A stretch of DNA of 63,882 bases, counting the filler, from Stramenopiles sp. TOSAG23-3 (lineage: Eukaryota): assembly GCA_900128585.1 (NCBI GenBank). It is 12 parts of 12 records of this genome, joined end to end, with 100 filler letters (N's around TTAATTAATTAA, not from the genome) between each part and the next. Parts side by side here need not be neighbours in the genome. Positions count along the whole stretch, not along the records: positions 16,474 to 24,603 come from LT643061.1; positions 24,704 to 32,829 come from LT643062.1; positions 32,930 to 41,047 come from LT643063.1; positions 41,148 to 49,263 come from LT643064.1; positions 49,364 to 57,475 come from LT643065.1; positions 57,576 to 58,758 come from LT646307.1; positions 58,859 to 60,040 come from LT646308.1; positions 60,141 to 61,321 come from LT646309.1; 4 more parts are not named here. One strand, written 5' to 3'. Under the pieces are notes generated by a model. That model did no database searches. It had not been told where the DNA came from and saw only the letters and a list, made by a program, of their open reading frames with translations. Below, one piece after another: positions 21,700 to 62,780 of this stretch. The number at the start of each line of letters is the position of its first letter. Position 1 is the first letter of the stretch. The position numbers and the translations under genes are program-made.

Positions 21700-22050
21700 C
21701 TTTGTACATAGTAAGATAAGTTCGCAGTAAATTTGAAGGAATGGTAACTGTTTACTTTGCCAAGATTCGAAACAGCAGGTACCCTTTGTCCGGAACACGC
21801 CAAGCTCGGATTCGGAAATCTCGAATTCTTACTACGTGCATTTTGGAAATTTCTAAATCCGTGAAGGTTGACCTTGATTTTCCACTTCAGGGCGTGTTCG
21901 TAGGTTGAAATCATTTTAATTTGGGGGGGGAGGAAAAAATACTTTGTAACTTAATTCGTACCTCTTATCTATCAAAGTAGTTTATATAAAGCAAGTAAGT
22001 TTTTTTTTATAATGCCTGGCCAAAATTAAAACAAAATTATTGTTAATTGT
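21700..22050. repeat. Fragments of the 3'-flank repeat family
   Basis: AGATAAGTTCGCAGTA near 21714; 22011-22043 is the reverse complement of about 58283-58314. Confidence 0.75.
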
Positions 22051-22113
22051 TTGATTTTGTTTGGAGATTTTGTCATAGGCTATAAATAAAGGAATTACCT
22101 AACTGTAGATTTA

Positions 22114-23289
22114 TCAATTTCGCCCACGGACTAGTGCTGCTACAATGGCCATTGAAACGATGGCACCCATCGTAGTAAATGCTGCCACGCCACGAGAGCT
22201 AAACATCGTAAGTGTTTTAGACCGAGGAGTATCTGGCGTTGGTCCCGGTGTTGGCGCTGGAGAGTCTGGTTTTGGCGGTACTTCTGCCGTGGTCTTTTGC
22301 TTGAGGAAACAGTCGTAGACGAAATGAGGCAAATAAGGCAGCGCGGGCGCCACGGTCCGCAGCGCGTTGTAGCCGGCTCCGGGAAAGAGCGCTGAGACGC
22401 CCTTGGTCATGCAGATTTTAGTGAGGCAATCGAGCACGCCCGTGTATCGGCGCTCGCCCAGGGGCCGCCGCGCATCCGAAATGAGGCGCAGGTGCATCGT
22501 TCTCACCGGGTAGGTCACGTAGGCGGCTGCGAGGGTCGTGCAGTTCCCCGCGACGAACTTGCCCCAGCCACTCTTGTAGCCCCAGTCCGCAGCGAGCGTG
22601 TGGCACAAGAAATAAGTGGCCCGATACAAAACTACGCCACCGACGGTCACGAGAAACCCGCTGTAGAGCTTGTTCGGGACATCGCCGAGTGTCTGGACCT
22701 CTCGTTTGAGGTAGTCCAGCATGCTTGAATACAAGGGCATGCCCTTCGCGTCCTTGCAGATCTTGAGCTGGAGGCTGGTGTGGTCCAGCGGGTACACCAC
22801 GGTCAACACCATCGCTGTATGGACGGTTCCGGTAAGAACGTTGTTAACGAAGTGCTTGCCCGGAAAGTCCGGCAGCTTCTTCCACAGTGCCTTGAAGAGA
22901 GTCTTCACAGGGGCCTTCAAGTTCAAGCTCAAGAACTGGGTGGGGATGTAGCGGAAGCAGTCTGGGAGGTGGCCGTGGAAAAAACCCCGCCAGCCCTCAC
23001 GCGCGTAGATGCGTTGCGCGCAGTCGAGCCCGCCATCGAGCGGCTCGGGTTCGCCAAGCTCGTCGTCGTCGTTGTATTGTAGCATGCGTTGGATCGTCAC
23101 GAACGGCGCCCACACGGTCTTTTGGACGCACGCGTTGATGCCGCCCACCACACGACTGTTGAAATCGCTCTCGGGCAACAAGTCCGCCACGAGCTGCCCG
23201 CCCCGGGCGCCGAGCCAGCCGCTGGCGATGGACAGCGCGACGACGCCGCTGGCCGCCGCGATTTCGCTGCCGGTCCAGGTGCCCGGCAT
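22114..23289 (-). CDS. Divergent ADP/ATP-carrier-like mitochondrial carrier with extra terminal hydrophobic segments
   Basis: RYIPTQ, VYPLD, LYSGF.V.VGGVVLYRATYF and YTGVLDC..I...GV.ALFPGAGYNALRTV align to AAC. Confidence 0.85.
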   Translation of the reverse strand: MPGTWTGSEIAAASGVVALSIASGWLGARGGQLVADLLPESDFNSRVVGGINACVQKTVWAPFVTIQRMLQYNDDDELGEPEPLDGGLDCAQRIYAREGWRGFFHGHLPDCFRYIPTQFLSLNLKAPVKTLFKALWKKLPDFPGKHFVNNVLTGTVHTAMVLTVVYPLDHTSLQLKICKDAKGMPLYSSMLDYLKREVQTLGDVPNKLYSGFLVTVGGVVLYRATYFLCHTLAADWGYKSGWGKFVAGNCTTLAAAYVTYPVRTMHLRLISDARRPLGERRYTGVLDCLTKICMTKGVSALFPGAGYNALRTVAPALPYLPHFVYDCFLKQKTTAEVPPKPDSPAPTPGPTPDTPRSKTLTMFSSRGVAAFTTMGAIVSMAIVAALVRGRN

Positions 23290-23879
23290 CTGTCTCTCTT
23301 GGGGACTTAGTCTGTCTACTGTCAAAGGATGCAAAAAAACAAAAGAAAAGATCTTACAGTAACAAGAAAAATGATGTACAGGAAAGAGGAGGCATAGGGG
23401 TTGGAAGAAACATTTCATTATAACATTATAATATTACTTTAATTACACTTTGCATCATATATTCAACGCGATTCTCTTATGTGGGTGAATAATTTGATCA
23501 AACAACAACAACCTCCGCCTTTGGCCATACCACCATGCTCCACTTCCCACTCACCACTCACTGGTCCACCATGATGATAAAATCTTATTACAATGATATA
23601 GTATAATGATTCTCCAATGAAAATAACTCAGTAAGAAGATGATATTGAACATAAAAGGTATATAGTAATGTTTTAATAAACCCAAAAAGAAAAGAAAAAA
23701 GAAGGTAAAACCGTTCAAGAACCCAAACTCCTCCTTGTTCCAGAATAATGAGAAGATGATATTGATATCAATCCACATATCATTTATTATTTTAGTTTTT
23801 TTTCTCAATTAAGAGTAAATATATTATATTATAAATAGTTAAACAAGCCAAGGACTGTGGGAGAGGATAGACCGCGCCG

Positions 23880-24603
23880 ACCACACCCACCATTCATCGG
23901 TCTTCCTGCTCCATTTTGCTGTTCTTCAGCATTTTGGAACTCCCGCTGGCCTTTTCCTTGTACTCGCTGCTGACGGTGCTGTCGTGGTGGCCAAACGTAA
24001 GATCCCGCCTCCCACCTGGAAGAAAATGTCCCAAGGGTTTGTTTTGTTTTGGAACCGTCGTACGCTTTTGTCTTTGTCAACTTCGACCTTCAGCACTTTT
24101 GGTGGTTGCATCACTTTCTGAAAGAAGCGGAGGGGTAGATCAGATCCTCCCCATTGTGCCAGTGTTAACACGGCCCACGGGAAAATTTGAACACGGTCGT
24201 AGATGATTGTTGCCCAAAACATCGGGAAAATCAAGGAAAAGTGCCCCATAAGGTAGAACGCTTCCCAGTTTTTTCGTCTGATCGGCGCAGACGACATTAG
24301 GACCAGCAAGCACAAGCAAACCACGCTGACTACGCCCGCGACCGGGTTGGTATCGCACATGCAGAGGTCAGACGAAAACGTTCGCGTGGTGAGCCCTCCA
24401 ATAGCAAAGAATACCCACGCAGCAATGGCGATAACAACAGACGCGTAACCATGCGCGGCATGGTACGCCACTGCGCGCTCCATTGGCATCCCCGTGAACG
24501 AGAACCAAAAGAAGTTGTTTTTCGTCCCGAGAGACACCTGGACGGGCAAGGAGCTGTAGAAGACTTCCATCAATGCGTGTGCGGCTGCACGTGCGGCTCC
24601 ACT
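23880..24603 (-). pseudogene. Ferric reductase-like protein, frameshifted and truncated; 5' end cut by the scaffold edge
   Basis: KNNF..FTGMPMERAVAYH and IRRKNWEAFYLMGH; the FAD-domain start WEAGSYVW is in another frame and similarity then stops. Confidence 0.7.
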
Positions 24604-24703
24604 NNNNNNNNNNNNNNNNNNNNNNNNNNNNNNNNNNNNNNNNNNNNTTAATTAATTAANNNNNNNNNNNNNNNNNNNNNNNNNNNNNNNNNNNNNNNNN
24701 NNN

Positions 24704-25870
24704 TGAGAATGATAGTCAAGACTAAGTGACAAGGGTATATCGATTAGTAAGACCAAAAGAGCAAAGATAAGTTCGCAGTTCAGGAAGGAATGCAAATTTA
24801 AAATGTCTAAATCTAGATTTCAGTTCGCAGTACACTAATTTTAATTACTTAAATAACAGCCAATTTTCTTGTTTAAATTTTAATTACTTAAATAACAGCC
24901 AATTCTCTTGTTTTCAGACTGTCCTCATTTTATATCAATTACGATTTCAGTTCAAACCGTAAACCTGTCTTGATGTTTTATTAATTTGATTCTTTAATTT
25001 CGTTTCGTTGGTTGTCAATCACTGAGGAATTATTTATATTCCAATGAGAAGAATTACTACCAAGTGATAATATTTCTTTTCTTGTTATAGGTGATCTGTA
25101 CTCAACAATCCGACCCAATTCCCAGTCAAAGAGTAATTAAAATTTAGCTTCCTCGTATACCGCGAAAATGAATCTACTCAGCTTTTGTTTCTTCGTTTTG
25201 TTTGATCATAGCGTGATGTTTCTACGCTATGAATATCATTGTTTTTAATGATTAATTTGAATTCTTTTTCTTGGGAGCCAATATCGTAACATGGTTACAA
25301 TTTTCTTGTTTGCATTCACTCATTTCTAGCAATATTCCCAATCCGATAATGTATACTAACAGTGTCATTTACTATATGTAACTAATATACACAGCATCTA
25401 ATTTAGTGCAGTGTAATTTTATAAAATTCTTACCTCGGGGCTTTTGAAGTAATTTAAAAACAAAAAATTGGCTGTTATTTAAGTAATGAAAATTCCCTTG
25501 TCACTTAGTCTTGACTATCGTTCTTATGTGTACTCCATGCATGATCCGAATCAGCGTGTGGAATTGCATCAACGTCAAAAGACCCATAATCAACTTCCTC
25601 ATCCAATGTCTCAATTATAGATGAATCATCCCTTGTGTAATTTTCCAAGCAGCGGCGTGAATGTTTTTACGGTGCTCGTTGTCTGTCTTGTAAACCAGTC
25701 AAGGAATTGTCATTTGTGAATTGAGGTGTCGGGAGAAGGTCGTTACGATCGGTATGCGTAATCGGCATTTGTGGGTTTTGTTGCGGTTGTAAAGGTTCGG
25801 TGGGCGGTGCTGTGGTTCTTTGGTTGGCCAATTGGGATCTCCTCCTGCTGGAGATGTTTAAAATTAAAAT
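24704..25870. repeat. Cluster of the 3'-flank repeat family
   Basis: TTAATTACTTAAATAACAGCCAATT twice forward (24841, 24880) and once reversed (~25460), plus decayed ORF modules in both orientations. Confidence 0.9.
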
Positions 25871-25935
25871 CAAAAATTTAATTTCCCGAATATGGTGGTT
25901 TAGTTTTCGCTTTAACTGTTAGTTAATCTGCCTTG

Positions 25936-27426
25936 TTAGGCGATCAATTCGTCAACAGTATCTAGGCATTTGTGCAGAATATCAAACCCCGCTTTAATTT
26001 CTTCCGGGCGTATTATTAATGGGGGGGTGCAATGGACATGATGGCCGCGCATAATCGTAACCAGGCCTTCTTCTTTCATGCGTTTCTTCAACACCGCCTG
26101 GCCTTCCGAAACCTCATGCATGTTCATCATAAAATTACCATCTTTCTTTGCAAGGTCGAACCCTGCCCCGAGACCGACAACTCGCCCCTGTTTAACGGAT
26201 GGGTGCAACTCAACCAGTTTCTCCATCTCCTTTTTCATTATGGGCTCCATTTTTTGGACGTGCCCAAGTATATCGTGCTCAAGGGTATACTTCAAAGTCG
26301 CGTACCCAGCCTCCATACAGACTGGATGCGCAAAGTATGTCGAGCCATAGCCTAGCGGATTTCCCCGAAAATGTTCATAAATTTCAGTGGTCACACCAAC
26401 ACCGCTTAAGGGCAAGTAAGCAGATGTTACCCCTTTCGCAAACGTATACATGTCGGGTACCACACCATCGTAATGCTGAAACCCGAACATTTTCCCTGTT
26501 CGGCCAAAGCCTGTCATGACCTCGTCCGACACAAGCAAAATGCCGTACTCGTCACATAATGCTCGCACGCCTTGCATAAAGGACTCGTGCGGTAGCAGCC
26601 AGCCATTTGCCCCCGTAACAGGCTCTAAAAATATCGCCGCAATAGACTGTGGGCCTTCCCACAAAATTTGGTCGTGCAAAGCGTGCAGGCATTTTTCCAC
26701 AGACTTTACGGGGTCTTCGTCCCACTGGAAATGGAAGGGAAAGGGATCCAGCATTTTGACGAAACCACTGGCTGTGGCATCGACGGCCCATGTCCGTGGG
26801 TCCCCGGTCATTGCAAGGGACGAAGTACTGCCCCCGTGATATGAGCGGTAGCGGCTGATAATTTTTGGTCTGCCAGTAAACCGGCGAGCCATCCGCTGCG
26901 CAGCTTCATTTGCTTCAGATCCCCCAGACGCAAAAAAAAAGCTATCGAGGTCCCCTGGTGAAATTTCCGCCAGCAGGGCACACAGTCGTGCCCTTGGGTC
27001 ATGAGTGGCGACATCCCCGTACACGAATGCGTTGTTGTCCAGTTGGTTAACTATCGCAGTTTTTATTGATTCCGGTACAGAGTGTCCCAAGTTTGTACAT
27101 ACAGCGCCAGCACTCCAGTCCAAGTATTTTTTATCGTTTTCATCATAGATATACACGCCCTCCGTCCGGCTGGCGTGGATAGCGGTTTCGCGCAAGGCAT
27201 CGCTTGCCCCCCAAGAAAATATAGAGTTTTTCTCGATTGCAGAGCTGACATCTTTATGGTCCCACTTTTCGATGCTGTGTTTAGCAGCATCATACACACC
27301 AGTAGAATTGTCTTTTGATTTAAACTTAGGGAAGGCATTGGTGTTTCCCTGAAAATCTAAAGTAGTAGAAAACCCGAAACCGATAGGCCGGTTCAAAAGT
27401 ATTCGCCTAGATTGTCGAAGGAGCAT
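25936..27426 (-). CDS. Class III PLP aminotransferase (omega-amino acid / taurine-pyruvate type) with a likely mitochondrial presequence
   Basis: GGSEANEAA, YRSYHG, IFLEPVTG, DEVMTGFGRTG, FAKGVTSAYLPL; Arg-rich N-terminus. Confidence 0.93.
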   Translation of the reverse strand: MLLRQSRRILLNRPIGFGFSTTLDFQGNTNAFPKFKSKDNSTGVYDAAKHSIEKWDHKDVSSAIEKNSIFSWGASDALRETAIHASRTEGVYIYDENDKKYLDWSAGAVCTNLGHSVPESIKTAIVNQLDNNAFVYGDVATHDPRARLCALLAEISPGDLDSFFFASGGSEANEAAQRMARRFTGRPKIISRYRSYHGGSTSSLAMTGDPRTWAVDATASGFVKMLDPFPFHFQWDEDPVKSVEKCLHALHDQILWEGPQSIAAIFLEPVTGANGWLLPHESFMQGVRALCDEYGILLVSDEVMTGFGRTGKMFGFQHYDGVVPDMYTFAKGVTSAYLPLSGVGVTTEIYEHFRGNPLGYGSTYFAHPVCMEAGYATLKYTLEHDILGHVQKMEPIMKKEMEKLVELHPSVKQGRVVGLGAGFDLAKKDGNFMMNMHEVSEGQAVLKKRMKEEGLVTIMRGHHVHCTPPLIIRPEEIKAGFDILHKCLDTVDELIA

Positions 27427-27753
27427 GCTTGCTAATTGTGTTTTATTTTGGAACGTGAAAAGTGTCGCGTATACAGTATTCTCTGGGGCTGTTTTTTTGT
27501 TGCTCTGGTTTATGGGACTGTTGATTCTTCAAGCCCAGCATTGTTGTTAGTTACTAAGAATTGTCGACGGGTGTAAAGACGACGTTTTGAGTTATAGTTG
27601 AACAACAACAAAATGTCTGCGGCCCGCACGTAGATGATCCTCCTGATTTTTTTATATATTTAATATTATTATATCGCTAGTAGTAGAAGGAAGAAGAGGG
27701 AGGGAGATTTTTCCAAAAATAATAAATACTATAGACACTATAGTCTAATACAA

Positions 27754-28168
27754 TTGAACTTTGCACGGAAAGTTAACAGAGCTGGGGGGGAGGGAGCGAA
27801 AAAAATTTCAGTTTTTTTTTACCATTTTTTAACCTACTGTTTTAATGCTGTAATCATATTATTAAGTGTACAATATCATCATAGCATATAGTATAATGTT
27901 ATAACATAGACGTATAGCGGAAAAAAAAGTTCTGTTCTTCTTAAAGTTTAAATTGTTATTTGTCATTTTTTTTGTTAGCAGAAGAAAGAACGAATATCGT
28001 GAAAATAAGGAATCCTCCTCCCTAACATTATACTATATGCTATGAGGATATTGTGCACTTAATAATATTGATACAGCATTAAAACAGTAGGTTAAAAAAT
28101 GGTAAAAAAATGAAATTTTTTTCGCTCCCCCCCCCCTCCTCCCCTGTTCCCTACCTTGCAAAGTACAA
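27754..28168. mobile_element. Foldback / MITE-like element with ~145-bp imperfect inverted arms
   Basis: 27758-27901 is the near reverse complement of 28023-28164, around a ~120-bp spacer. Confidence 0.75.
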
Positions 28169-28760
28169 AAAAAAAACACCTTGACGCTCTGCTCTAGCCA
28201 GCTCTGACGGGACTCTTCCATCTAAGTATTAAGGTTTAAACTATAATATAATTGTTTTTTTAACATAACATTTTGTAATCTAATTAANNNNNNNNNNNNN
28301 NNNNNNNNNNNNNNNNNNNNNNNNNNNNNNNNNNNNNNNNNNNNNNNNNNNNNNNNNNNNNNNNNNNNNNNNNNNNNNNNNNNNNNNCAACAATTAATTA
28401 AAGCTTGCCCCATACAATAGTGTTAATACTAGGTTAATTAAAAGTATTTATCATTCCCTTAAAACATTTAGATCAAGGGTTGTCGCCCGAACGGGAGGCT
28501 ATTATTATTATTAAATTATTATTATTAATAATATTTAACAGAATTAGATTCAGTTCAGTTCAGCTCATTATTCAGAGTTAGTTTAAGCATGAAGATCACG
28601 CACCATCATCCGCCGCATTTATTACAAAGTTTTATCAACTGTTCGACAAGAATCGAGCTTGTCCATCAAGCACAAAGAACCAAACCTAAATTACGCATTC
28701 CAATACTAGCCCGTCTAGTCTCTTGAGAGATTTACAATACCCTCCAACTTTTCTGTCTTC

Positions 28761-31700
28761 ATGGCCGCTATTGTTCAAATTCGGTACTCTCTTGGGCATT
28801 CTGCTCCCAAGGTCGAGGACGTCAGACCAATCGAGTTTTATAAAGTTGCCAAATTTCCTGCGCCACAGGATAACTGTGCCATAGCTACGTGCACTATTGA
28901 AGCCGGGACAAAGTTGCTAATGCCTAACAATTGCGACGTTTATACAATTTCGCATCGTATATTAGAAGGGCACAGGTTTGCGGGGACTACGATGAAAAAA
29001 GATGACGTTTTATATTCGTGGAATCTTCCGTTTGGAAAAATGATAAAAACAGTTACACCAGGGTCATACTTAGTAAATAATACAATCATTGAAGCTCTAG
29101 AACGGCGGAACGTAACGAATTTGCCAGAAGCTAATTTCGAAGATGAAATCATTCCATATATATTAAATGATGATACAAAAATCCAAGCGTGTGAACAGGT
29201 ACCTTTGTATGATAAAAAAGAAACGTTTGCGGGGTACAAAAGGAAAGGGGGGCGTGGTACAGGAACTCGAAATTATATCGTAATAATGTCCTCGTCCTCC
29301 TTATCGGCGCCGTTTGCGAGGGAATTGGCTAAAATTACGAATGAATTAACCTCTAAATGCAAAAATGTTGATGGTGTCGTACCGATCGCCCACACAGAAG
29401 GCAGCATTGAAGGTGCTAATCGCAATCTCGTTGTTCGAACTTTGGCTGGTTTCACCGTGCACCCAAATGTTGGTTGCTGCTTGTTAGTTGACTTTGGGTA
29501 TGAAGATATAACGACAACCGACATATTATCATTTGATAACGAGCACTTTCAATCCAGACTGAAAGATACTCGAAAAAAACAATTAAGGTTAACCTCTAAT
29601 ATTGAAAATGATTTGGTAATCGGTAAAAAAATTGTTGAAGACTTTATTGGAATACTTGAAAAAGACACTAGGTCTACACAAACATTTGATCAAATCAAGG
29701 TCGCGCTGCAATGCGGGGGGTCTGACGCTTTTTCAGGGTAAGTTTTCAAAAAAACCCTCTATACGAAAGAAAAAGATGTCTAACAAACTAATAATTTTTT
29801 TATGTTTCTAGAGTTAGCGCAAACCCGACCGTTGGAGCGGTTGCAAGGTACGTCATTTAAAATATTATTTGTTTACAGCAAAAAAAACATATGTCTAACA
29901 ACCAAACAACTTAAAAAATTCTTCTCAGGGAAGTGTTGAAGAACGGAGGGGGTGCTGTATTGGCCGAGACGGATGAATTGATTGGTGCAGAATCCCATAT
30001 ACTTGGAAAAGTACGCAATAGAACCGTTGCAGAAAAGTTTCTACGGACGGTACAAAATTTCAAAGATTGGATGAGCTGGCATGGACAAACCGCGGAAAAC
30101 AACCCGAGTGGTGGAAACAAACTAAGAGGAATTTACAACATTACGTTGAAAAGTATTGGTGCTGGTATGAAAAAACCAAAAGACGTGCGTTTAGATTATG
30201 TAGTGGACTATGGTGAGTTGCAAAAAGAAAATTATGGTTACACTTTCATGAATAGCCCTGGGAACGATTTGGAAAGTGTTGCAGGGCAAGTAGCAACTGG
30301 GTGTAATTTCATATTATTTACCACTGGAAATGGCGCTGTTACAAACCACCCCTTTGTACCAACGTTAAAAGTTATTACCACAACTCGCCGTTATGAATTA
30401 TTAAAACATGATATGGACTTTAATGCAGGAAGATTTCAAGATCCTTCAAGCAAAGTTCCAATCGATGTACTGGGAAAAGAATTATTCAATACTTTGAAAC
30501 AATGTGCATCTGGTAAACGCACGATAGGTGAAATAGCTGGGCATTCGCAGGTCCAGTTGTGGCGTAGTTGGCACTTTACAAGCAAAGATCAAATGAAAAC
30601 ATGTGAGGGGAGGAAACTTGATCAGGATGCGATGAAAGGTGATGCAAAGAGGACAGCATGGGACACCAACTGTAAACAGCATGCGTCTATTGATACACGC
30701 AAAGTAAACCAAAAAAATAATATCACGTGCAATTATGTTGTTGGCGGTAATAAAAATTTGAATAACTATAATGATACGAATCAATTTACAAGTGACTCTG
30801 TTGCCTTGATAATTGCAACAAGTTTATGTTCCTCCGAAGTTTCGCAGCAAATTGCAGATATATTAAATAAAAAATTGTTGCAGGCTGGGAATACTGATAG
30901 TAGTATTACAGTTACTAAAAATAGTGTGCCCATCACTAGGTTCGTCTGTTGCTCCCACACGGAGGGCTGTGGTTCAATGCACGCGGATGGCAACGCCGAA
31001 GCCAATATACCATTTCGAACATTATTAGGGCATCTGAAGCATCCAAGTGTAGCGACAGGCTTCCTTGTGGAACATGGTTGTGAAAAACATCATAATAAGT
31101 ATTTCAAGCAGCAAATGAAACGTTACCAGATGGATCCAGGTAAGTATGGCTGGGCCTCTATCCAATTAGGGGGCGGTTTGAAAAATTGTATAAGCAAATG
31201 TGTGGAATATTTTTTTCCCTACGAAGAAGAAACTATCAAAATTGGAGCAGACATTACACCAATACTCCGTATAAACAATACCTTTCCATTGCCTAAAATG
31301 AAAATTGGGGTGTATTCCATTGGGAATAGTAATCGCAGAAACGGGAAAAGTCGTATTGGCAATCAAAATACAATCCCAGAACAATTAGCAATTGGGGCAT
31401 CTGAATTTATACAGTATTGCTTACAAAAAAAAGCAGTTCCCATAATGTCGTCGCAATGTTTGCTTTTAAAATCACCATTGTTTTTAGATGAAATTTTTGA
31501 AAGTCAAAATAATACTAACCCCACTATTGCATTTGCACAAATACCCCCTGAAGAAAACGAAAATAGTTCGAATGGGTTGCATATAATGAATGCACCAACT
31601 AAGGAATTAATTGAAACGTTTACTGCATTTGCGGCAAGTGGTTGCATTGTTACAGTTATTTTTTCTCCTACGATGGTGCATGTACCAAATCATCCATTCA

Positions 31701-31852
31701 TGCCAGTTGTCTTACATAACAAATTTGATACATTAAATGATTTATTGAAGAAAATTGTTTGTGCTATTGAATGCAACAGCAGAAAATTTGGGGAAAAAAG
31801 TTTTATGGAAGGTTTTCAAATTGCCCGGGGACTGACGGGCATTAGTGTGTAA
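28761..31852 (+). CDS. UxaA/GarD/SuyAB-family dehydratase, long form; exons 28761-29737, 29812-29847, 29929-31852
   Basis: SAF-like N-terminus, GTRNYI, spliced CGGSDAFSGVSANP..AVLAETDELIGAE, NPSGGN, GNDLESVAGQVATGC, FTTGNG. Both introns are GT-AG with a TCTAAC branch site. Confidence 0.92.
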
Positions 31853-31878
31853 AACAACACCATAATTCAGTTTATCTA

Positions 31879-31956
31879 AATTATAAAGTAAATGTAAGAC
31901 AGACAATTATAAAGTAAATGTAAGACAGACAATTATAAAGTAAATGTAAGACAGAC
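31879..31956 (+). repeat. Three perfect 26-nt tandem repeats
   Basis: AATTATAAAGTAAATGTAAGACAGAC at 31879, 31905 and 31931. Confidence 0.95.
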
Positions 31957-32829
31957 AACGAGCACCTTCAAAACAATTACGCCGCTGCTTGGAAATCACA
32001 CAAGGTCTGACTCTTCAATGAGTGAGATATCGGATGAGGAAGTTGATTACGGGTCATTTGACATCGTCGAAAGTTCAAATATCCATTCGGGCTATGCATG
32101 GAGTATACCAAAGAATGATAGTCAAGACTACGTGACAAGAGTAAATTGATCGAGAAAATCACAGGAGCAGAGATAAGTTCGCAGTACATGAAGGGAGCAA
32201 ACATTTAAAGGGCAAGGAGCAGATTCACATTCGCGGTACATGAAGAAGATAAATTATAATTAGTTGTAATCCTCGAATGTCTTAATCTAGAGTTCAGTTC
32301 GCAGTTAATTAATTTTAATTACTTATTAATAAACAAGAAAATTGTTATTTAAGTAATTACTTCAATAACAGCCAATTTTCTTGTTTTTTTTTAATTACTT
32401 AATAAATAACAGCCTGTATTTTGTTTTTAATGTTAAATTAACAGCCGCCAATTTTTTGTTTTTATTAGTCTAATGTAAAAAAAAACAAATTATATAGTAG
32501 TATGTTTTAGACTAAGACTCTCATTTTAAATCAATTACTATTTCAGTTCCAACCCTAACCCTATCTTGATGTTTTAATTTGTTTTTAATGTTTCCAATAT
32601 ATTTGAGTAAATGCTTCCACTCTTGATTTGTAAACCAATGTCTCAGTCTTTAAATTATTTCTAAATTTAGAGTTCAGTTCGCAGTACATAAATTTTAATT
32701 ACTAAATAACAGCCAATTTTCTTGTTTTTAATGTATATTTACAATTTAAGCTCCCCCGACATCTCAACTCACAGATGACAATCCCATGACTAACTTACAA
32801 GGCAGACAACGAGCACCTCAAAAACAATT
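31946..32829. repeat. Cluster of the 3'-flank repeat family
   Basis: Modules GACAGACAACGAGCACC, GAGTTCAGTTCGCAG, AATAACAGCCAATTTTCTTG and CAAATTATATAGTAGTATGTTTT. Confidence 0.9.
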
Positions 32830-40572: not shown

Positions 40573-41169
40573 AAAGTGTATAGTATTTTACGTTAAATAC
40601 CAAGGGTATTATAATTGGAATAATATCGATAATAATAATAAATCCCTTTTGTCTTTCGTCGTCGTACTTCTTTGTGGCCACAAACGATGCTTCTTTTCTT
40701 TCTTCTTCTTCTTCTTTTTTTTCGCTAACCACAGTGCTATTATACTGTACCGGTATTGATACAAGATGACACGGTAGAGCAGAGGAGAAGAAGGAGGTAT
40801 AAATACGAGGATACCTGGTCTTTTAGTGCCATTTAGAGTACCAAGGTACGGGTTCGTAGGTAGTAGGAGTAGTCTCTCTCTTCCAAAGAAGAAGAAGAAG
40901 AGTATTTATACATTTTGATTGATGGTGGTGTTCGCGCCAACTGACTCCTCTGTTTTGTATTTGTTACTGTGCTTGCCTCTTCTTTCTTTCTTTCTGCTGC
41001 ACCTGTTTATTTTGTGTATGCGTGTGTAATTTTAATAAATATTTTAANNNNNNNNNNNNNNNNNNNNNNNNNNNNNNNNNNNNNNNNNNNNTTAATTAAT
41101 TAANNNNNNNNNNNNNNNNNNNNNNNNNNNNNNNNNNNNNNNNNNNNCGAGCCCAAAACATTTATGCCG

Positions 41170-41266
41170 TTGTTTACTTGCCAATTGGAATCTTGACCAG
41201 AACTTGGGGAGGATCTGCATTAGGAGGAGATATTGTTCTTGGACAGACACCTTCTTTTTTCTTTTT
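41170..41266. repeat. Second 3'-flank repeat module, also present at 54818-55030
   Basis: GTTTACTTGCCA.TTGGAATCTTGACCAGAACTTGGGG..GACACCTTCTTTTTT shared between two scaffolds. Confidence 0.9.
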
Positions 41267-41433
41267 ATACGACATATATTTTTTTAAATACATACATATA
41301 AATAACCGCTATGAAAGTAATTTCTTTTTTATTTAACGATTGATAGCGCAGTTCTAATAAGTAATAATGACGACTATCAGCGATAATATAGCTCATCGTC
41401 TTAAATAATACGTGGCTGTACACGAATTCTATC

Positions 41434-50927: not shown

Positions 50928-52190
50928 GAAAAAAACAAATTATATATAGTAGTATGTTTTAACTTTTAAATAATAATAGGAAAAAACAAATTATACTTTA
51001 TTAGAGGTATCATGAGTTATGATATTTTACTGAGTTTTGGAATTTAAATTTGACCAAAAATAAATAAAATATGATCATTGGACACATTTATGCACTGCTG
51101 TGTTATTCTAAAGAACAACATGCTAAATTTAATTACTTAAAATAACAGCCAATTTTCTTGTTTTTAAAGAACAACACTAAGAAAATTGGCTCCTGTGTTC
51201 GTTTTATTTTAAGTAATTTTATAAGATTAATGTACTTGCGAACTGAACTCTACTGGTGTGATTTCAGTAATCAAAATATACCCTTGTCACTTAGTCTTGA
51301 CTATCATTTTCAGATGTACTCCATGCATGATCCCATAAGACCCATAATCAACTTCCTCATACGATATTTCACTCATACATGAATAATCCCTTGTGTGGTT
51401 TTCCAAGCAGCGGCGTGAATGTTTTAAAGGTGCTCGTTGTCTGTCTTGTAAACCAATCAAGGAATTGTCATTTGTGAATTGAGGTGTCGAAGGGGGGTCG
51501 TTTAAGTCCGTTTGCATAATTGGCGTTTGTGAGTGCTATTCCAATGATGAAGATTCGGTAGGCAATGCGATGTGATGACCAGTGAAATTAACCGCCAAGA
51601 AATTAACGTCGCAAGGAACGTAGACCATATATAACGCTATTCCCAGTTTCACGATAGATTATTACAGAAAAATTTGTTTTGTTTTGTTGTTGTCGGTTAA
51701 AAAATGCATCTCCTTGACACAGCATCGTTTATGTGTTGTAAAATATAGGTGATTTCCCCCGATGTTATTTCTATATCCATATTCGAGGCCAGTAGTAGCA
51801 GCGCAGCGTCTTCATATTAAAACAGTTTTGGTATTTTTTTGCTTTTAAATGTTTTAATCTAATTTTCTTTTTAATTTTAAAATTAAAATGCTGTTTAACT
51901 TATTTTTACTATTAAAAACAAGAAAATTGGCTGTTATTTTTAAGTAATTAAATTTAGCTTCCTCATACCCTAAACCTAAATTGATTCTGCAATTTTGTTT
52001 CGTTGTTGGTTGTCAATCACCGAGGGATGATATAATTTCCAATGAACAATTTAATTCCTTTTGTCCGTTATCGGCCTCATCCGATATCTCACTCAGAGAT
52101 AACTCAATCCTTTTTGAGGTGCTCGTTGTCTGTCTTGTAAATCGGTCAAGGGGTTGTCATCTGTGGGTTGAGATTTTTACTAAAATCTAC
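50928..52190. repeat. Cluster of the 3'-flank repeat family between convergent genes
   Basis: End motif forward at 51128 and reversed at 51178 and 51913; two decayed ORF copies on the minus strand. Confidence 0.9.
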
Positions 52191-54801: not shown

Positions 54802-55188
54802 TTAATTGACCGCCGCTGTTTACTTGCCAGTTGGAATCTTGACCAGAACTTGGGGGAGACATACGAATACGCCCTGAAGTGGAAAATCCANNNNNNNNNN
54901 NNNNNNNNNNNNNNNNNNNNNNNNNNNNNNNNNNNNNNNNNNNNNNNNNNNNNNNNNNNNNNACTTGGGGAGGATCCGTAATAGGAGGAGACATTGTTCT
55001 TGAACTGACACCTTCTTTTTTTCTTTTTAATTTTAATTACTATAAAAAATAACAGCCAAATTTTTCTTATAATTAATTGAAAACTGCACGCGTGTTTACA
55101 AAAAAAATATTTTACACTCGTAATTATTACTCGTGCGAAGTATATAACGTATAAGAACTATAAATAACAAATTATATAGTATAAGAAC

Positions 55189-55377: not shown

Positions 55378-55863
55378 TCAGTCGTCGTCTCGTTTCGAAC
55401 CTAGGTTTGCACGCCATTGAGCCTGATGACTTCTATATAGACACACCATTATTATTATTAATTTAATAAAAAAACAAAGTTTTAGCTAAATAATAATAAT
55501 GGAAATGACTAAAAAAATTTGCACTGAAACCAAAAGTTAGTGCTATCTTTATGTTATATTTATTTATAGTTGGTGCATGGTTCCTCGGTACGAACGAGGG
55601 ACGACGAGAGGGACGGAAGGGAGGAGAGAAAAAAAAAGAAGTAAGAGAACCAACAACAAAAAAGAAAAAACAACAAAAAACAAGAAAATGAATTATGACG
55701 CAAACGCACGGCACGCACAAAAAAACGACGAAGAACAAATGTGGGAACAGCAGAATAATGATACGAACTTTTGCTGCGTAAAAATTATACAAATAAACGA
55801 GATTCGAACACCTTTTGCTTCGGAACAGAGACTTCCATTTTTGAAGGCTGAAGCGACCAGAAA

Positions 55864-57028
55864 ATGTCGGCGCCCAACGGAGAAGAAGGCATTCCGCCGG
55901 TAAGCACAGACGATGCGAAAGCGGCAGGTGGTCCGGTGCCCGACCAGGTGGCGCTGAAAAGGTCGGATGTAATAAAGAAAAAACTTCTGAAGCACCATTT
56001 AGTTCTCGGACTTTTGTTGGGGCTTGTCTTTGGCTGGACGGTGCCTTCGCCAGGGTTGTTTTGGGGATCGATAATTCCAAAGAATGAGTGGGTGTCAGTG
56101 TCAAACCTTCACGTTTTCGGGGCTAAAGACAACTGAAATCAAAAAGGCCTTATCGGAGTGGAAAGCTGTCATTTATGGAATATTCACCATTCTAATTTTG
56201 ACGGCGTGTATGGGTGGAGTAATGACGAGGATTCCTTTGTCTATGCCGGAGCTGGCGTACGGGTTGGGGGTATTTTGTTGTGTTCCAACGACGATGTCGT
56301 CTGGGGTCATTTTGGTCGGCCAAGGCGACGGGAACACATCGTTGGGGTTGCTACTGACAGTTGCGACAAGTTTGTTGGGGGTGATTACCATCCCGTTCAT
56401 GCTGTTCCTCGCATTCTCAAGCCTTGAAGGGGATACATCTATAAATATCAATGTGGGGACAATGGTGTACAAACTAGCCTTGTTCGTAGCACTTCCCTTG
56501 GGCATTGGAAAGTGTGTCCGTCATAGCCACCCGAGGGTCCCCGTATTTCGAACCGTGAACAAGTTAAAGTTCAAGCTGACTTCTTCGCTACTCCTAATCA
56601 TGATCCCGTGGATGAAGGTTTCCTCTTCAGTGGACAAAATGAACTTGTTAAGCGTAGAACTTGTGGTCGCTTGTATCTTGCTCGGCGCATTAATGCATCT
56701 CGTGTTTTTGGCGGTAAATTTATTTGTGGCGAAATTTTTATTGGAGCTGGAGCAGCCCGAGCAAATTGCACTGACGATTCTTGGATCACAGAAAACGTTA
56801 GGAATAACCGTCACCGTCGTCGATTTTCTACCGGACAGCTTGGGGGCAAAAGGTGTAATTCTTGTGCCTTGCATATTTGCTCATTTTGTTCAAATTTTAA
56901 TTGACGGTATTTTGATCTCGCACACCGACAAAATATTTTGGAAAGGGTCGTTTAAAGACTGTTTGGCGAAGAAGCGAAAGCAAGCAGATACGGACGAGGC
57001 CGGAAAGAAGGAGATAGAAATGATTTGA
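55864..57028 (+). CDS. Sodium/bile acid (BASS4 / SLC10A7-like) symporter; frameshift near 56110
   Basis: GLGVFCCVPTTMSSGV.L..GN..L.LLLTV..LLG, LGSQKTL, PCIFAHFVQILID; TM1 is in the upstream frame. Confidence 0.88.
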
Positions 57029-57135
57029 ACGAGAGAGACCATGCACATTTTTTTTTTATTTGAGGTCGAACTCGAATCACGTGCGCATGTCATGCCCCGG
57101 AGAAAAGTTACAACGCACACACATGCTGTTCTATT

Positions 57136-57475
57136 TAAAAAAAAACAAATTATATATAGTATGTTTTAAGACTCTCATTTTAAATCAATTACTATTTCAG
57201 TTCCAACCCTAATCCTATCTTGTTATTATATTTTAATTTGATTTTTTAATTTCTTAATTTCGTTTCGTCGTTGATGGTTGTCAATCATCACAGAGGAATT
57301 ATTTTTATTCCAACGAGAAGAATTATTACCAGGTGATAATATTTCGTTTCTTGTTAAAGGCGATTTGAACTCAACAAAACGATCCAAATCCCAATCGTAG
57401 TCCGTGATAATATCACCCACCTTTGGAGACTCTTGTGAGTAGATCACTTCTTCGCTGAACTCATCAGAGTCATTT
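57136..57475. repeat. 3'-flank repeat family, GLGLELK module (also reversed at 59125-59320)
   Basis: Matches 24915-25130, 32478-32580 and, reversed, 59125-59320. Confidence 0.9.
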
Positions 57476-57575
57476 NNNNNNNNNNNNNNNNNNNNNNNNN
57501 NNNNNNNNNNNNNNNNNNNTTAATTAATTAANNNNNNNNNNNNNNNNNNNNNNNNNNNNNNNNNNNNNNNNNNNN

Positions 57576-58360
57576 TACAGAATCAAGTTAGGATTAGGGT
57601 ACGACGAAGCTAAATTTAATTACTTAAATAACAGCCAATTTTCTTGTTTTTTAAATTTAGAAGTAATCTATCTTAAAAAACAAAAATTGGCTGTTATTTT
57701 TAATTTAGCTTCCTCATATACCGCGAAAATAAATCTACTCAGCTTTTGTCCATTAGAGGTTTACGTTCCTTCATGTACTGCGAACTGATCTCTACTGTTG
57801 TGATTTTATTTCTTTCTATCATGTACTGCAAACTGATCTCTACTGTTGTGATTTTAGTAATCAATATACCCTTGTCACTTAGTCTTGACTATCGTTTCTA
57901 TTGTGTGCTCCATGCATGATCCGAATCAGTATGTGGGATTTAATTTAATTAAATTAATTAGTATATATTGAATGTTTAGTAGAGTTCAGTTCGCAGTACA
58001 TTAATTTTAATTACTTTTAAATAACAGCCAATTTTCTTGTTTCTATCATATTATAAAAAAAAAACAAATTATATAAAAACAAGAAAATTGGCTGTTATAA
58101 AAAACAAAATTATATATATGTTTTTATTATATATTTTTTGATCGTAGGAACGACAAAGGAGGCACCGACCGACTTTAAGTGATATGAATTTTAGCAGTTG
58201 CAAAATTAGATCAGTTTTACAATTGGGATAATCTTGAGAGTCTAAAAAATATTTTGATTTGACACAAAGTCAAATAATTACACAATAATTTTGTTTTAAT
58301 TTTGGCCAGGCATTATATAATTTTGTCTTCATACTATATAATTTGTTTTTTTATAATTTT
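57576..58360. repeat. Cluster of the 3'-flank repeat family
   Basis: End motif four times in alternating orientation; the first ~75 nt are identical to 62703-62778. Confidence 0.9.
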
Positions 58361-58369
58361 GTCTTCAAT

Positions 58370-58758
58370 TTATGACGAGGAAGACTTATAAAAATCTATG
58401 TCAATCTCAACTCTGGGCAATTCGACCTCCTTCTCTGCTAACTGTTCCTCTTTGTCTCTTTTAAATGCAATTTTTTGAGCGTGAATTTTCTGTGCACAGT
58501 CCAAACCATGGCCTATGTCTTCCATGGAATCAACAGTTTCTAGCCAATTAGTAATTTGGTCCCGCTCCTTTCCTTTCGCACCTTTTCGTACTAAGAACCT
58601 CAACACGTGGAAGTGCCCGTTTGCTGCCGCCATGGAAAAGCCTGTTCTGCCACGCTTGTCCCGGAATTGCAAATTCACGTTTGGGCTTCTTGCCAAGACC
58701 TGGATTACTCCTAAATGCCCTTGCTGACATGCCAGCAGCATCGGACTCCCTTCCTCCA
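58370..58758 (-). CDS. Ankyrin repeat protein, 3' part
   Basis: LACQQGHLGVIQVL; RGRTGFSMAAANGHFHVLRFLVRKGA. Confidence 0.85.
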
Positions 58759-60642
58759 NNNNNNNNNNNNNNNNNNNNNNNNNNNNNNNNNNNNNNNNNN
58801 NNTTAATTAATTAANNNNNNNNNNNNNNNNNNNNNNNNNNNNNNNNNNNNNNNNNNNNTGTAGACACACCATCAGCTAGTTATTTTTAAAATAACACACA
58901 AACAACAGTTGAAAAAAAATGAATTATTATTTATAATTAAAAATAAAAATTTAAATACAGGTTATTAGCAAGGACTATAGTAATAATAAAACACAAAAGA
59001 AATAAAATAATCCAAAAAAAATCTAAAATTGTTTTTAGTCTGGATATTTTTATTATAATTTGAGAGCTTTGGTTTTGGCATGCTGTGTTGCTATGTTCTA
59101 ACTATCCTTTCTACTCATTGGTCATTGGAATAGGAATAAAAATAATTCCTCTGTGATGATGATTGACAACCATCAACGACGAAACGAAATTAAGAAATCA
59201 AATTAAAACATCAAAAGATAGGATTAGGGTTGGATTTGAAGTAGTATTTGATTTAAAATGAGAGTCTTAGACTAATTAAAAAAACATATTTTATATTTAT
59301 ATATATTTTGTTTTTTTTTCTACGATAAAACAAATATGAAATATTAATGATGGGGAGTGGGGAGTCTAAAAAGATTGATGATATGGTCGCCAAGACGACC
59401 AATGCAGTCAAGCCCTGTTTCAACATATTGCCTTCCTTCTCTAGTAGTCTAACACTTTTACAATAATATTGCAATACCTTTACTTTCAAACTGATTATGC
59501 TCGCTCTTTTCGTCACCGCCATAGTTTCAATTACTCTTTCTCTTTCAGTCGGACAACCAACACGCACACCTTCTTCGTTTGTTGGATAAGGCATGGACGC
59601 GTTCAAATCCAAATATTCGATTTAATCAAATATTTGTTGAGTACATAAAATGCATGTTAATTAGAATCTATTGTAATAGATGCAAATAAAATCCATTTAA
59701 TAAATATAATACGTAATGTTGTGCTTTCCTTTTATTATGAATAAACAATACAAGTACTATTTATGTATTCTAATCTTATATACCTATGAAATACCATCCC
59801 CCTTTTTTTAGTTTCCAGTCCTTTCTCGTTTCGCTTCATTGCTTCTAATAATGTCCATTATTAAATAATAAAAAATAAGGAAGAGGAAAGAAAAACGAAT
59901 TAATACTTATTTCTTTCCCTTAATTATTATTTCAATGGATGTATCTGTCCAATGGTTATAACTAACATATTTGTCTGTAAATCTTTCACACTTTACAGTT
60001 CGTCACCTCCCCCCCCCAGCTTACAAATTCGACACCATTTNNNNNNNNNNNNNNNNNNNNNNNNNNNNNNNNNNNNNNNNNNNNTTAATTAATTAANNNN
60101 NNNNNNNNNNNNNNNNNNNNNNNNNNNNNNNNNNNNNNNNTCCTCCTAAAATAGATAACGGTTACAGTACTACGAATACTATAACCACACAACAAGTACA
60201 ATGAAGAATTGAAAAAGAAGAATGAATCCAAATTTTAAATAATAAATACACACCGAATAATAGCCCCATACATATCACACTCTGAGAGTGGGTAGTAGAC
60301 TTACTATAAGATAATCCCTATAAAATTATGCCAGTTCGCCGTACTAAATTAGTTCCCCCTCTTTAAGAAAAGTCCAAAAAGATGTGCCTCTTTTTTAAAT
60401 ATAGAAAAGGGGGGGGGTGGACCTCTAGAATAAAATGTATTACTATAGGAAACTTAATATAAATAATATATATGCGAGCGGGTGAAAACGCGCCTGTTCC
60501 TTCGCTGGGCGCGGGCCCAGGTCGAGAGGGAGGCTGCGGTTGCCAACAAGAGGGGGGGGAGGAGTCCGATGGACTTTTTGTTAGGGCGGTGAGTGAGCGA
60601 GTGCGAGTGAGAGAGAGGCAAAAGAGTCTTACGCACGAAATA

Positions 60643-60782
60643 AAAGCAAGAACATTGGCTGTTAATTAAGTAAATTAAAATTAATGTACTGCGAACTGAA
60701 CTTACACACGAAATATTAATATAAGAAGTATGAGGAAGCTAAATTAAGTAAATATTTAAATAACAGCCAATTTTCTTGCTTA
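60643..60782. mobile_element. 140-bp MITE-like unit bounded by inverted copies of the repeat-family end motif
   Basis: AAGCAAGAACATTGGCTGTTA at the left and TAACAGCCAATTTTCTTGCTT at the right. Confidence 0.6.
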
Positions 60783-61251
60783 TATAATATCATTAAGAAC
60801 AATTTTATGATAGTTTGAATGATGAATACCAGAAGTTTTATTCTGGAACAAGGAGGAGTTTGGGTTCTTGTTTGTTCATATATCATAAGAAGAACGTATC
60901 ATACTATATATAATTTGTTTTTTTTTTTCATAAGAAGAACGTAGTCGCACAAAATTCTATCCTGCAAAACCACCCAATACCACTGGAATGAAGAGGATGT
61001 TCCTACTACATGTACAGCCGAAGTATACCCCTTTTGTTCATTGTCTTGTACTTTCTTCATGTACTTCGTTTGTCAATTCGCCTATCCGATATGTTAAATT
61101 GTTTTTGTTCATCCTGTTTAAATGTAATACTAATTCTTTAATCTACCTATGTAATGAATAGAAAAGAAACCAACGGGGAGGGAGACGATGATGGAGTCAG
61201 CACAAAAAAGAGCCGATCGATGATCGACCGTTCGTTCGATCTTTTTTTGAG

Positions 61252-61321
<70 letters not shown>
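61252..61321. repeat. (GAAA)n microsatellite at a scaffold end
   Basis: Visible in sequence. Confidence 0.95.
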
Positions 61322-61421
61322 NNNNNNNNNNNNNNNNNNNNNNNNNNNNNNNNNNNNNNNNNNNNTTAATTAATTAANNNNNNNNNNNNNNNNNNNNNNN
61401 NNNNNNNNNNNNNNNNNNNNN

Positions 61422-62601
61422 CGCATGCGACGTCTTGCGCTGCCAAGAGTTTCGGAAGCACGGACTTGTCCTCGAACTTTCTCCGGTCGACGAGCCACGA
61501 GTCGCAGGAAATCGAGGACTCCCCGTTGACGAGCTTCACCACGGTGGAGAGCAGGTGGCTCATCCCGTTCCCGTGCGGCCGTTCAAACTGAATGCTATCC
61601 GGCGTCATTTTGGTGCACTTCCAGCCGCAGAACTTGCTCGCCAGGGCGTAAATGTCTTGCATGGTCGCGACTTCCACTTTCAGCGCTTCGTAGCGGACGA
61701 CGAGGTCCTCCCGCTTGGCAATTCTATTTTGAAGCTGCTCCCGCTGGGCTTTCAAAAACCTCGCAGACTCCTGGGCGTTTGCCAGGCTCCGCCGGGCCTT
61801 GTCGAACCGTCCCTGAAACACGTCTACCGTCTGCTGCTGCTGCTTGACCTCCTCCTGTAGCGCCACGAGACGCTGGAACGCGGAAAATTCGGCTTTCAGC
61901 GAGATCTCAACGTTCTCCGCCCGCTCCATCTCTTCCTCCAGCACGCGCTTGTCGCTTGCCATCTTCCCGTTCAGGTCGACGTAGTCCTTCTGCAGCCGCT
62001 TCTCGATCTGCACCTGCCACAGGCACCACTCCTTTGCTGCCGCCAAACGGTTGATCTCCGTGCACTGCTGTGCCTTGGCGCGGGTGTCGTCGTCTGCCTG
62101 GGCGCCCGCCTCGTCCGAAAGGTTCCCGACGTGGCGAAAGATGGCGGGCTGGTCGGCCTCGAGGCGGCCCACCTTAGCCCTGTACTCCGCGGTCGCTTCA
62201 CCAACGACGTTCCGCATTTCTCCGCACGCCCACTCGTGGATCGCGGCGTCGGGAACCGTCAGTAGGAGGTGCATGGCCCTGGAGGCAGCGTCCAAGCCGT
62301 GGCGCGCGCCGTAGTCCCCGGCGGGGGTGTTCGCTGGAAGGGGGAGCGCGCTCGCGGGGGTCTCTCGAACGAACCGCTGGACGCCCAGGGCGCGGGCCAC
62401 TTCGGGGAGAGTGACGTTGCGCCCCGACGACCGGAGAATCTCCCCGACGTCCTCCGTGAGGTCCATCGACTCGTTCAGCACGATGCTCCCGCGGCGGTCC
62501 CCGCCAAGGGCCCCGGGCCGCAGCACCGGTAGGTCTGGGTTCATGGTGTAGTCGTCGTCCTCGCTGTCGAGCTGCTCGCTGATCAGGGCGCCCAGGCCGC
62601 C
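61422..62601 (-). CDS. KNL1: Kinetochore scaffold KNL1/Spc105/Spc7, internal fragment
   Basis: MELT-like NESMDLTEDVG; Spc7-like W.C.E..LEADQPAIF..RLAAAKEWCLW; coiled coil; start of an RWD-like domain (GWKCTKM). Open at both ends. Confidence 0.65.
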
Positions 62602-62702
62602 CNNNNNNNNNNNNNNNNNNNNNNNNNNNNNNNNNNNNNNNNNNNNTTAATTAATTAANNNNNNNNNNNNNNNNNNNNNNNNNNNNNNNNNNNNNNNNNN
62701 NN

Positions 62703-62780
62703 TACAGAATCAAGTTAGGATTAGGGTACGACGAAGCTAAATTTAATTACTTAAATAACAGCCAATTTTCTTGTTTTTAA
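62703..62780 (+). repeat. Repeat-family end abutting a stop codon
   Basis: Identical to the start of the 57576 scaffold; ends directly next to the minus-strand TAA at 62781. Confidence 0.92.

Follow-up and report, generated by a model that had tools for sequence, protein, structure and literature searches.

Results

The repeats, their host and the loci sampled

We analysed a stretch of 63,882 nucleotides (nt) from Stramenopiles sp. TOSAG23-3 (assembly GCA_900128585.1), hereafter the window, in which 12 contigs are joined by N44-linker-N44 and short repeats with T-rich ends lie behind protein-coding genes. The host of these repeats is an uncultured marine protist; the window is eukaryotic, its genes are compact and intron-poor, and the labelled runs among the best matches were marine or seawater metagenomes. 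The excerpts of PMC8163842 contained no passage about repeats. A preliminary description of this DNA had taken the repeats for one unrecognised mobile family found only behind gene 3' ends, with four shared modules recurring on seven scaffolds and an end motif in more than a dozen copies. The exact 36-mer of that motif occurs only twice; its 23-nt core, however, has 14 matches at up to three edits, distributed over both strands, whereas 100 shuffles of the intergenic DNA of the window each yielded 0. The other three modules were all present, and all seven scaffolds were borne out, although an eighth contig, starting at 41148, had been missed; family pieces total approximately 3.9 kb, spread over 8 of the 12 contigs.

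In place of a genome-wide count, the window was combined with 59 metagenome loci, which were kept from the 72 retrieved with a 19-nt pattern based on the GACAGACAACGAGCACC module once 5 chance matches had been removed, together with 8 duplicates that were allelic or overlapped other records. Gene calls were long open reading frames (ORFs), scored with a hexamer model that had been fitted to the data, and 3 corrections were made by hand in the window. Every stop codon cited in the preliminary description was an ORF end, and most of the genes concerned had Pfam matches.

About five families (F, E, J, G and I) and three T-rich tails, A (102 copies), E (38) and G (10), were distinguished in the window and loci. 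Of these 150 tails, 46 run into other element DNA, and the mosaic look arises because some five families, three tails and alternative 3' untranslated regions (3'UTRs) are combined with nested insertion. A mobile element behind gene 3' ends had thus been rightly recognised, but it comprises several sister families of a known element class and not one unrecognised family; likewise, copies do occur in both orientations, with three T-rich ends instead of a single common one. The frame ends of families G and I, which carry the third tail, resemble the end of F only weakly (E 0.002 at best), so that shape and this slight C-terminal similarity weakly suggest their membership.

Rfam returned two chance matches only, on a microsatellite; a tRNA search found none, without sign of a short interspersed nuclear element (SINE) head or a ribozyme; and the window gave no rRNA match. 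The tail pattern was not found in viral contigs, and its single match in prokaryote genomes was a family-F copy (L073) on a 4-kb contig of a bacterial metagenome-assembled genome, which is probably eukaryotic contamination. In contigs of 4 runs, the A tail reached a summed depth in the tens of thousands and its flanks one of about 5, a ratio that does not represent copy number.

The parent element of family F

In the longer window copies, the GACAGACAACGAGCACC module encodes DRQRAP within an open frame. A near-complete copy was found in locus L025, with a frame of 1748 aa (P0001) that is open at the contig end, bears reverse transcriptase (RT), CCHC and restriction-like endonuclease (RLE) motifs, holds the module in its last codons and is followed by a 3'UTR of about 110 nt, of which the last 75 nt agree exactly with window 57576-57650. 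By tblastn, P0001 matched five window copies at aa 1651-1746. Its RT motifs lie at aa 448-640; PF00078 is present in 26 of 30 homologues, the related P0003 matches RVT_1 at 1e-11, and a profile of 22 relatives built without P0001-3 scored P0001 at E 2.8e-59. In the PDB, the best match of the joint profile (A3), running from RT through RLE, was to R2 proteins (E 2.6e-49, compared with about 1e-22 for L1 ORF2). Residues C1296, H1305, C1309, H1319, D1384 and K1460 are nearly invariant in A3, and conservation is likewise complete or almost complete at the RT, CCHC and RLE positions. The RT motifs and the consensus of the 25 relatives may be CRE-like.

Between L025 and L043, dN/dS was 0.18 for the CCHC/RLE part, compared with 0.46 for the sequence that precedes it and 0.70 for the disordered tail. 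Family F consists of one long frame (RT, CCHC, RLE and disordered tail) followed by short 3'UTR variants that end in the T-rich A motif. Both hallmarks of an RLE-type long interspersed nuclear element (LINE), namely an RT domain within a long ORF and a CCHC finger plus PD-(D/E)xK nuclease C-terminal to the RT, are present.

Signs of retroposition

An A tail was found at +237 to +412 nt from the anchor in 26 of the 43 loci with enough sequence, reached through a UTR of type C in 14, of type B in 10 and of another kind in 2. The 3' end is fixed, while the 5' extent ranges from 0 to 2634 nt among 56 loci, in agreement with the variable other end described before; for the 98 tails that did not serve as anchors, the median length is 56 nt. 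The copies of 76 nt at 57576 and 62703 are identical, but each begins at a contig end, and hence they do not represent independent 5' truncations.

Duplications of at least 12 bp flank 8 of the 150 tails, compared with a mean of 1.4 and a maximum of 5 in 200 flank swaps, and three of the stubs concerned lie in the window (51109-51176, 58316-58367 and 60883-60943). Around single stubs, duplication length varies from 10 to 16 bp. Filled and empty alleles were also observed: a 22-nt E stub of L060 is missing from L061, and the alleles L068 and L070 have E stubs that differ from each other and occupy neighbouring positions, both pairs concerning E-tail stubs. Both signs that had been suggested as checks, target-site duplications and empty sites, were therefore found. 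A 4.1-kb difference between L014 and L029 was considered as an insertion and rejected, being a gene deletion or a chimera. An A follows the T-run in 125 of the 150 tails against 43-46% in the background, which suggests a weak preference of insertion for AT-rich sites. The fold of the 3'UTR was not significant (z +0.74).

The fixed 3' end, ragged 5' extent and target duplications point to retroposition and not to an element with terminal inverted repeats (TIRs) or a Helitron; family F combines a fixed 3' end and variable 5' truncation with target duplication or empty sites. Among the modes of mobility offered in the preliminary description, 5'-truncating retroposition was thus supported by the ORF with RT and RLE, the fixed 3' end and target duplications of 12-16 bp. 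Rolling-circle mobility was not supported, given that the modules represent the end of the ORF and the 3'UTR in an element bearing RT and RLE. The paired inverted ends are not TIRs either, since single stubs own duplications of 12-16 bp and are independent insertions. Neither two fixed ends of the TIR kind nor a RepHel protein without duplication was found. For family F the TIR and Helitron readings are refuted, and for E they are so in large part.

Position relative to genes

Within the window, tails were present in 6 of 9 spacers open on the stop side, in 2 of the 5 tandem ones and in only 1 of the 8 that are convergent, and in none of the 7 divergent and 10 start-side open ones, which bears out the claim that divergent 5' spacers lack copies; the comparison of convergent with divergent spacers was not significant in the window alone (Fisher p = 1). 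In the combined set, in which the spacer through which each locus was retrieved is omitted, the first gene-score cut-off gave 23 convergent spacers, of which 10 held tails, 36 tandem spacers (8 with tails) and 32 divergent ones (1 with tails; p 3e-4). With a lowered cut-off, the values were 10/23 for convergent, 11/17 for stop-side open, 9/39 for tandem, 0/34 for divergent and 0/42 for start-side open spacers. Stop-bounded and start-bounded spacers thus held tails in 21 of 40 and 0 of 76 cases, respectively (p 2e-12), or 49 tails per 16.3 kb against 0 per 67.8 kb. Tandem spacers contain 23 tails, 21 of them in the half next to the stop (p 0.006, on 11 of 12 contigs); 15 of the 23 are co-oriented and 8 anti-oriented.

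Copies of both orientations lie behind stop codons, no more than a few hundred bases away, the median distance from the stop to the first element base being 105 nt (n = 115). As for the claim that they lie only there, the bias is real and extends beyond the window, but the exclusivity is not, as tandem spacers are used and most convergent window spacers are empty. Exceptions are found in L004, where the ORF strand is ambiguous, and at 23663-23748 of the window, where a stub in a tandem spacer is at the same time 244 nt upstream of a start. In coding DNA, 1 copy of 150 was found, at an ORF end. In L067, the final codons of a host ORF, near 2950-3000 in the orientation used here, are supplied by an A tail, a possible exonisation or broken gene end. 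An apparent excess of antisense tails near stops was rejected as geometric, the distance having been taken from the tail.

Divergent spacers have a median length of about 1.2 kb and hold other repeats in 4 of 34 cases, including a 415-nt foldback (27754-28168), as well as microsatellites. These repeats and microsatellites argue against blanket intolerance, although targeting is not thereby proven. The GAA/AAAG microsatellites reported for 5' spacers hold as a tendency: across the window and loci they were present in 4 of the 34 divergent spacers, in 8 of the 46 that are open on the start side and in none of the 44 convergent ones.

Copies in the window

In the convergent spacer between stops 21588 and 22114, blastn to the library identified a short internal fragment of the family-F 3'UTR (21713-21743, plus strand), followed by a G/I-family ORF-end fragment (21876-21905, minus). 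The stub at 23663-23748 (minus) belongs to family I and carries the third, G-type T-rich tail. A family-F 3'UTR of type B with an A tail and then a second A-tail stub (24704-24914, plus) adjoins a family-E 3' part that has lost its tail (24916-25135, minus). Further along lies a family-F copy of about 400 nt with ORF end, 3'UTR and A tail (25451-25858, minus; 46% identical to P0001 aa 1651-1746), the 5' edge of which is about 80 nt beyond stop 25936. Past stop 31852, a family-F copy with ORF end and type-B UTR contains nested A stubs in both orientations (31948-32392, plus), and at 31895-31966 an approximately 26-nt tandem duplication was noted at the 5' junction of an F copy. The same contig carries a family-E 3' stub with E tail (32476-32589, minus) and, at 32654-32829 (plus), a B+A stub (32654-32730) and an F ORF-end piece that ends at the contig end. 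On the contig absent from the preliminary description, a G-family 3' end with G tail (41148-41267, plus) lies past stop 41434.

Between stops 50863 and 52246 there are an E-tail stub (50929-50962, minus); the 44-nt A-tail stub 51121-51164 with its 12-bp target duplications 51109-51120 and 51165-51176 (feature 51109-51176, plus); a family-F copy with ORF end and type-B UTR (51208-51572, minus; 57% identical to P0001 aa 1669-1733); and another with ORF end, type-C UTR and A tail (51913-52174, minus), whose 5' edge is about 70 nt beyond stop 52246. A G-family 3' end that spans an N gap, with G tail and a degenerate A stub, occupies the tandem spacer past stop 54801 (54812-55068, plus). At nearby 54734, an RNA contig is about 150 letters longer and contigs of two other runs stop matching, so the gene may be partly missing here.

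A family-E 3' end (ORF end, UTR and E tail) cut by a contig end (57136-57475, minus) is 86% identical to the protease-encoding copy of L007. It is followed by a pile of F stubs in both orientations plus an E stub (57576-58122, no single strand), with F stubs at 57576-57651 (plus), 57677-57931 (minus), 57969-58045 (plus) and 58074-58098 (minus); 57576-57650 is identical to the L025 3'UTR over 75 nt. Next lies a family-J 3' end (58141-58260, plus; the family with RLE and Ulp1-like domain, no OTU), 98% identical over 94 nt to the L012 copy, which encodes the C-terminus of P0115/P0116. The 20-nt E-tail stub 58332-58351 (feature 58316-58367, plus), with 16-bp target duplications, is 3 nt from stop 58370. 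The remaining copies are a family-E 3' end with degenerate tail (59122-59319, plus); a B+A stub (minus), A stub (plus) and I-family piece (plus) at 60640-60870; the 29-nt E-tail stub 60899-60927, with 16-bp target duplications (60883-60943, plus); and a family-F type-C UTR with A tail (62703-62780, plus), which abuts stop 62781 of a minus-strand gene.

Protease-like domains in the E/J lineage

The CAAATTATATATAG... tail (E tail) belongs to a sister lineage in which the frame continues past the RLE into a Ulp1-like domain; family E has an OTU domain in addition, and family J has none. A 2.26-kb E copy in L007, with a 13-14-bp duplication, contains a 535-aa frame, P0032. The profile of its 82 relatives matches yeast Ulp1 (1euv) at E 1.1e-6 and OTUD5 at E 0.06, and weak contacts with Peptidase_C48 and with OTU were seen in 6 of 57 members each. 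No long relatives of P0032 turned up in a search aimed at them, and the Atlas gave only Peptidase_C48 leads below 0.9.

The structural model of P0032 had a predicted local distance difference test (pLDDT) score of 66, and a single-sequence fold, with pLDDT 38, was not usable. The model matches OTU folds (Foldseek E 7.6e-5), and its aa 277-436 superimpose on yeast Otu2 with Z 12.9 and a root-mean-square deviation (rmsd) of 3.3 over 138 aligned residues. Given that the OTU catalytic residues are conserved (D293 in 12/12, C296 in 14/14, H429 in 13/19), this segment is predicted to adopt an OTU protease fold with Asp-Cys-His. The model also matches the His-containing half of Ulp1/SENP folds (Z 5-6), with aa 35-240 aligning to residues 438-559 only of 1euv (Z 5.3, rmsd 4.1, 108 aligned). 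The match stops at residue 559, short of the catalytic Cys of Ulp1 (position 580), and within the Ulp1-like domain a single Cys motif is conserved (14/14), located 160 aa before the His. The domain may hence be circularly permuted; profile searches did not confirm this, the profile of the Cys-motif region having no match to the C-terminal half of Ulp1.

Several records connect these domains with the LINE frame. P0037 carries the P0032 frame upstream, with an extension 40% identical to the post-RLE region of P0001, and bridges to L007. P0116 holds CCHC, RLE and Ulp1-like domain in one chain, without OTU, and is 86% identical to P0002, which bears RT and RLE; its end occurs in L002, L012 and window 58141-58260. 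A frame-shift fit of the E/J lineage gave 28/30 against 13-16. An RT-RLE-Ulp1(-OTU) architecture, pieced together from these overlapping records, is therefore predicted.

Other features of the window and loci

The foldback at 27754-28168 lies in a divergent spacer, and its arms are 94% complementary over 88 and 33 nt; it is MITE-like and unrelated to the LINE tails, and L069 holds a related hairpin. A 57-nt repeat, 93% identical, occurs at 22005-22060 and 58264-58320, both copies just beyond stops. A non-coding repeat of 520-690 nt, about 80% identical, was found at L039 5430-6120, L001 2030-2710 and L005 4840-5360 (orientation as used here), in convergent, start-side and tandem spacers, and is not confined to 3' ends. 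Among the genes, 674-4739 comprises a 1120-aa ORF with a ResIII/DEAD-type helicase domain and then a frame with internal repeats of about 170 nt. At 28761-31852, a two-exon gene has two GD_AH_second domains and one GD_AH_C domain, as in a fused or rearranged altronate/galactarate dehydratase, and a small deaminase-like gene at 45232-45852 matches Inv-AAD and dCMP deaminase.

Discussion

The repeats are very probably 5'-truncated copies of a small, recently mobile radiation of RLE retrotransposons lacking long terminal repeats (non-LTR elements) of the R2/CRE type. By analogy with the known mechanism of target-primed reverse transcription, the RLE would nick an AT-rich site and the freed 3' end would prime on the U-rich end of the RNA. 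Early abortion would then leave mostly stubs of about 20-60 nt flanked by duplications of 10-16 bp, and repeated insertion into the same spacers and into older copies would build the mosaic piles.

Several observations weigh against this interpretation or against the strictness of the niche. Direct Pfam scanning and a single-sequence PDB search with P0001 gave no match, and the protein is divergent, with PHN for RHN and a long insert between the catalytic acids. Among the loci and the window there is no 5' end or full-length copy, L025 ending at a contig edge, and no one record has RT-RLE-Ulp1-OTU. No A tail was in range in 17 of the 43 loci, 142 of 150 tails have no duplication of at least 12 bp, and among the joints listed for the contigs of 4 runs none represented a clean empty site. 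With regard to position, the gene-score cut-off was lowered after inspection to include a weak 207-aa ORF, so that the value of 0/76 rests on the lowered cut-off; the sole divergent case at the first cut-off, which held 4 tails, was next to this ORF, which ends beside them. Furthermore, an F copy in L064 lies 319 nt upstream of a start.

Two accounts of the niche have to be weighed. On balance, we slightly favour preferential access of the retrotransposons to 3'/terminator DNA as its source. There is, however, a nearly even chance that insertion is blind to gene ends and that purifying selection in a compact genome and large population, with pile-up in tolerated copies, produced the pattern. 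The weakness of the target preference after the T-run, the tails that continue into other element DNA and the near absence of copies from coding DNA are in line with such selection, and EhLINE, also an RLE element, is presented in excerpts of PMC1635306 as lacking targeted insertion. Selection alone fits less well with the long divergent spacers, which tolerate microsatellites and other repeats of 119-450 nt, and with the lack of any 20-40-nt stub in the start-bounded spacers.

It is improbable that the T-rich motifs are host signals (termination, polyadenylation or mRNA stability) or domesticated stubs like Leishmania SIDERs. Their short distance from stops would suit such a role, and two oligo-dT contigs (X16 records 5 and 7) cross from a gene into a stub, a weak hint of 3'UTR inclusion; yet tails face both ways in tandem spacers, 7 of 8 convergent window spacers have none, the stubs are polymorphic between alleles and own target duplications, and the 3'UTR fold is ordinary. 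A TIR element (MITE) or a Helitron-type DNA element can hardly be reconciled with long copies that encode RT and RLE, a protease domain that follows the RLE in one protein (P0116), one fixed and one ragged end, and duplications around single stubs, even if opposite-facing tails share spacers and Ulp1 and OTU domains are known in Ginger1, Mutator and Helitron proteins (excerpts of PMC2836005).

Truncated LINE tails as such are ordinary and belong to a known element class; what is new is how narrowly the copies are confined to DNA behind genes, and the sister lineage with its protease-like domains. According to the excerpts of PMC4640811, RLE non-LTR elements form five clades (CRE, R2, R4, NeSL and HERO), mostly target-specific. 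The copies share with R2 and other RLE LINEs a single ORF with RT, then CCHC and a C-terminal RLE, a precise 3' and variable 5' boundary, and target duplications (PMC4640811), but differ in having no multicopy target gene, many tiny dispersed stubs, a T-rich tail and confinement behind stop codons. Membership in the strict R2 clade, defined by 28S rDNA insertion, was rejected, the copies lying in protein-gene spacers. As in the CRE group (CRE1/2, SLACS, MoTeR, Cnl1 and FoTeR), the order CCHC-(R)HN-E-(R/K)PD/RAD-D is kept (PMC12857005, a source whose excerpts describe the REL motif for the CRE/SLACS/MoTeR group) and truncated copies outnumber full ones; F departs from it in PHN for RHN, in QAD, in a longer spacing of about 55 aa between the catalytic acids, and in being neither telomeric nor spliced-leader-specific.

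NeSL-1 and Utopia-1_TSP are likewise RLE LINEs with a Ulp1-like cysteine protease domain, which is N-terminal there (PMC4640811, in part), whereas in E/J it follows the RLE, with the Cys motif before the His motif and OTU added in family E. Ginger1 transposases resemble family E in bearing C-terminal deconjugase-like domains (OTU or Ulp1) but belong to DNA transposons with TIRs and have, in the published table, one domain per family, not two in tandem (PMC2836005, in part). Like the present elements, Entamoeba EhLINE/EhSINE are protist non-LTR elements without a fixed target gene whose nuclease nicks at a short motif; the excerpts of PMC1635306 do not state that they are excluded from 5' spacers (Entamoeba LINEs and SINEs are also treated in PMC2875222, seen in excerpt), and the short copies described here are truncations, not SINEs. 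SIDERs, too, are short retroposon remnants behind stop codons, 73% overlapping 3'UTRs, but they are extinct, derive from retroposons of the ingi/L1Tc type and regulate mRNA (excerpts of PMC2323293), in contrast to the polymorphic copies found here. In the literature outside Repbase and most subscription journals, neither this family nor a LINE aimed at gene 3' ends was found; in the same literature, Ulp1 in LINEs was N-terminal only, and no C-terminal Ulp1/OTU in an RLE LINE was found.

A more far-reaching proposal, which we regard as rather unlikely in its entirety, is that these RLE LINEs lost fixed-sequence targeting and home to RNA polymerase II (Pol II) termination zones, that one lineage added SUMO- and ubiquitin-removing proteases (permuted Ulp1-like and OTU) plausibly acting on modified chromatin or repair proteins there, and that the stubs constitute a genome-wide source of standing 3'UTR variation. 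Some site-selective retroelements target promoters. Others are directed to rDNA, snRNA, spliced-leader and tRNA genes or telomeres (PMC4640811, in part, for the repeat targets); if the proposal is true, an element that homes to the ends of Pol II genes would add another safe-harbour strategy. An RLE-Ulp1(-OTU) protein would widen the known domain architectures of LINEs, and the polymorphic stubs make targeting and selection testable against each other in ocean metagenomes.

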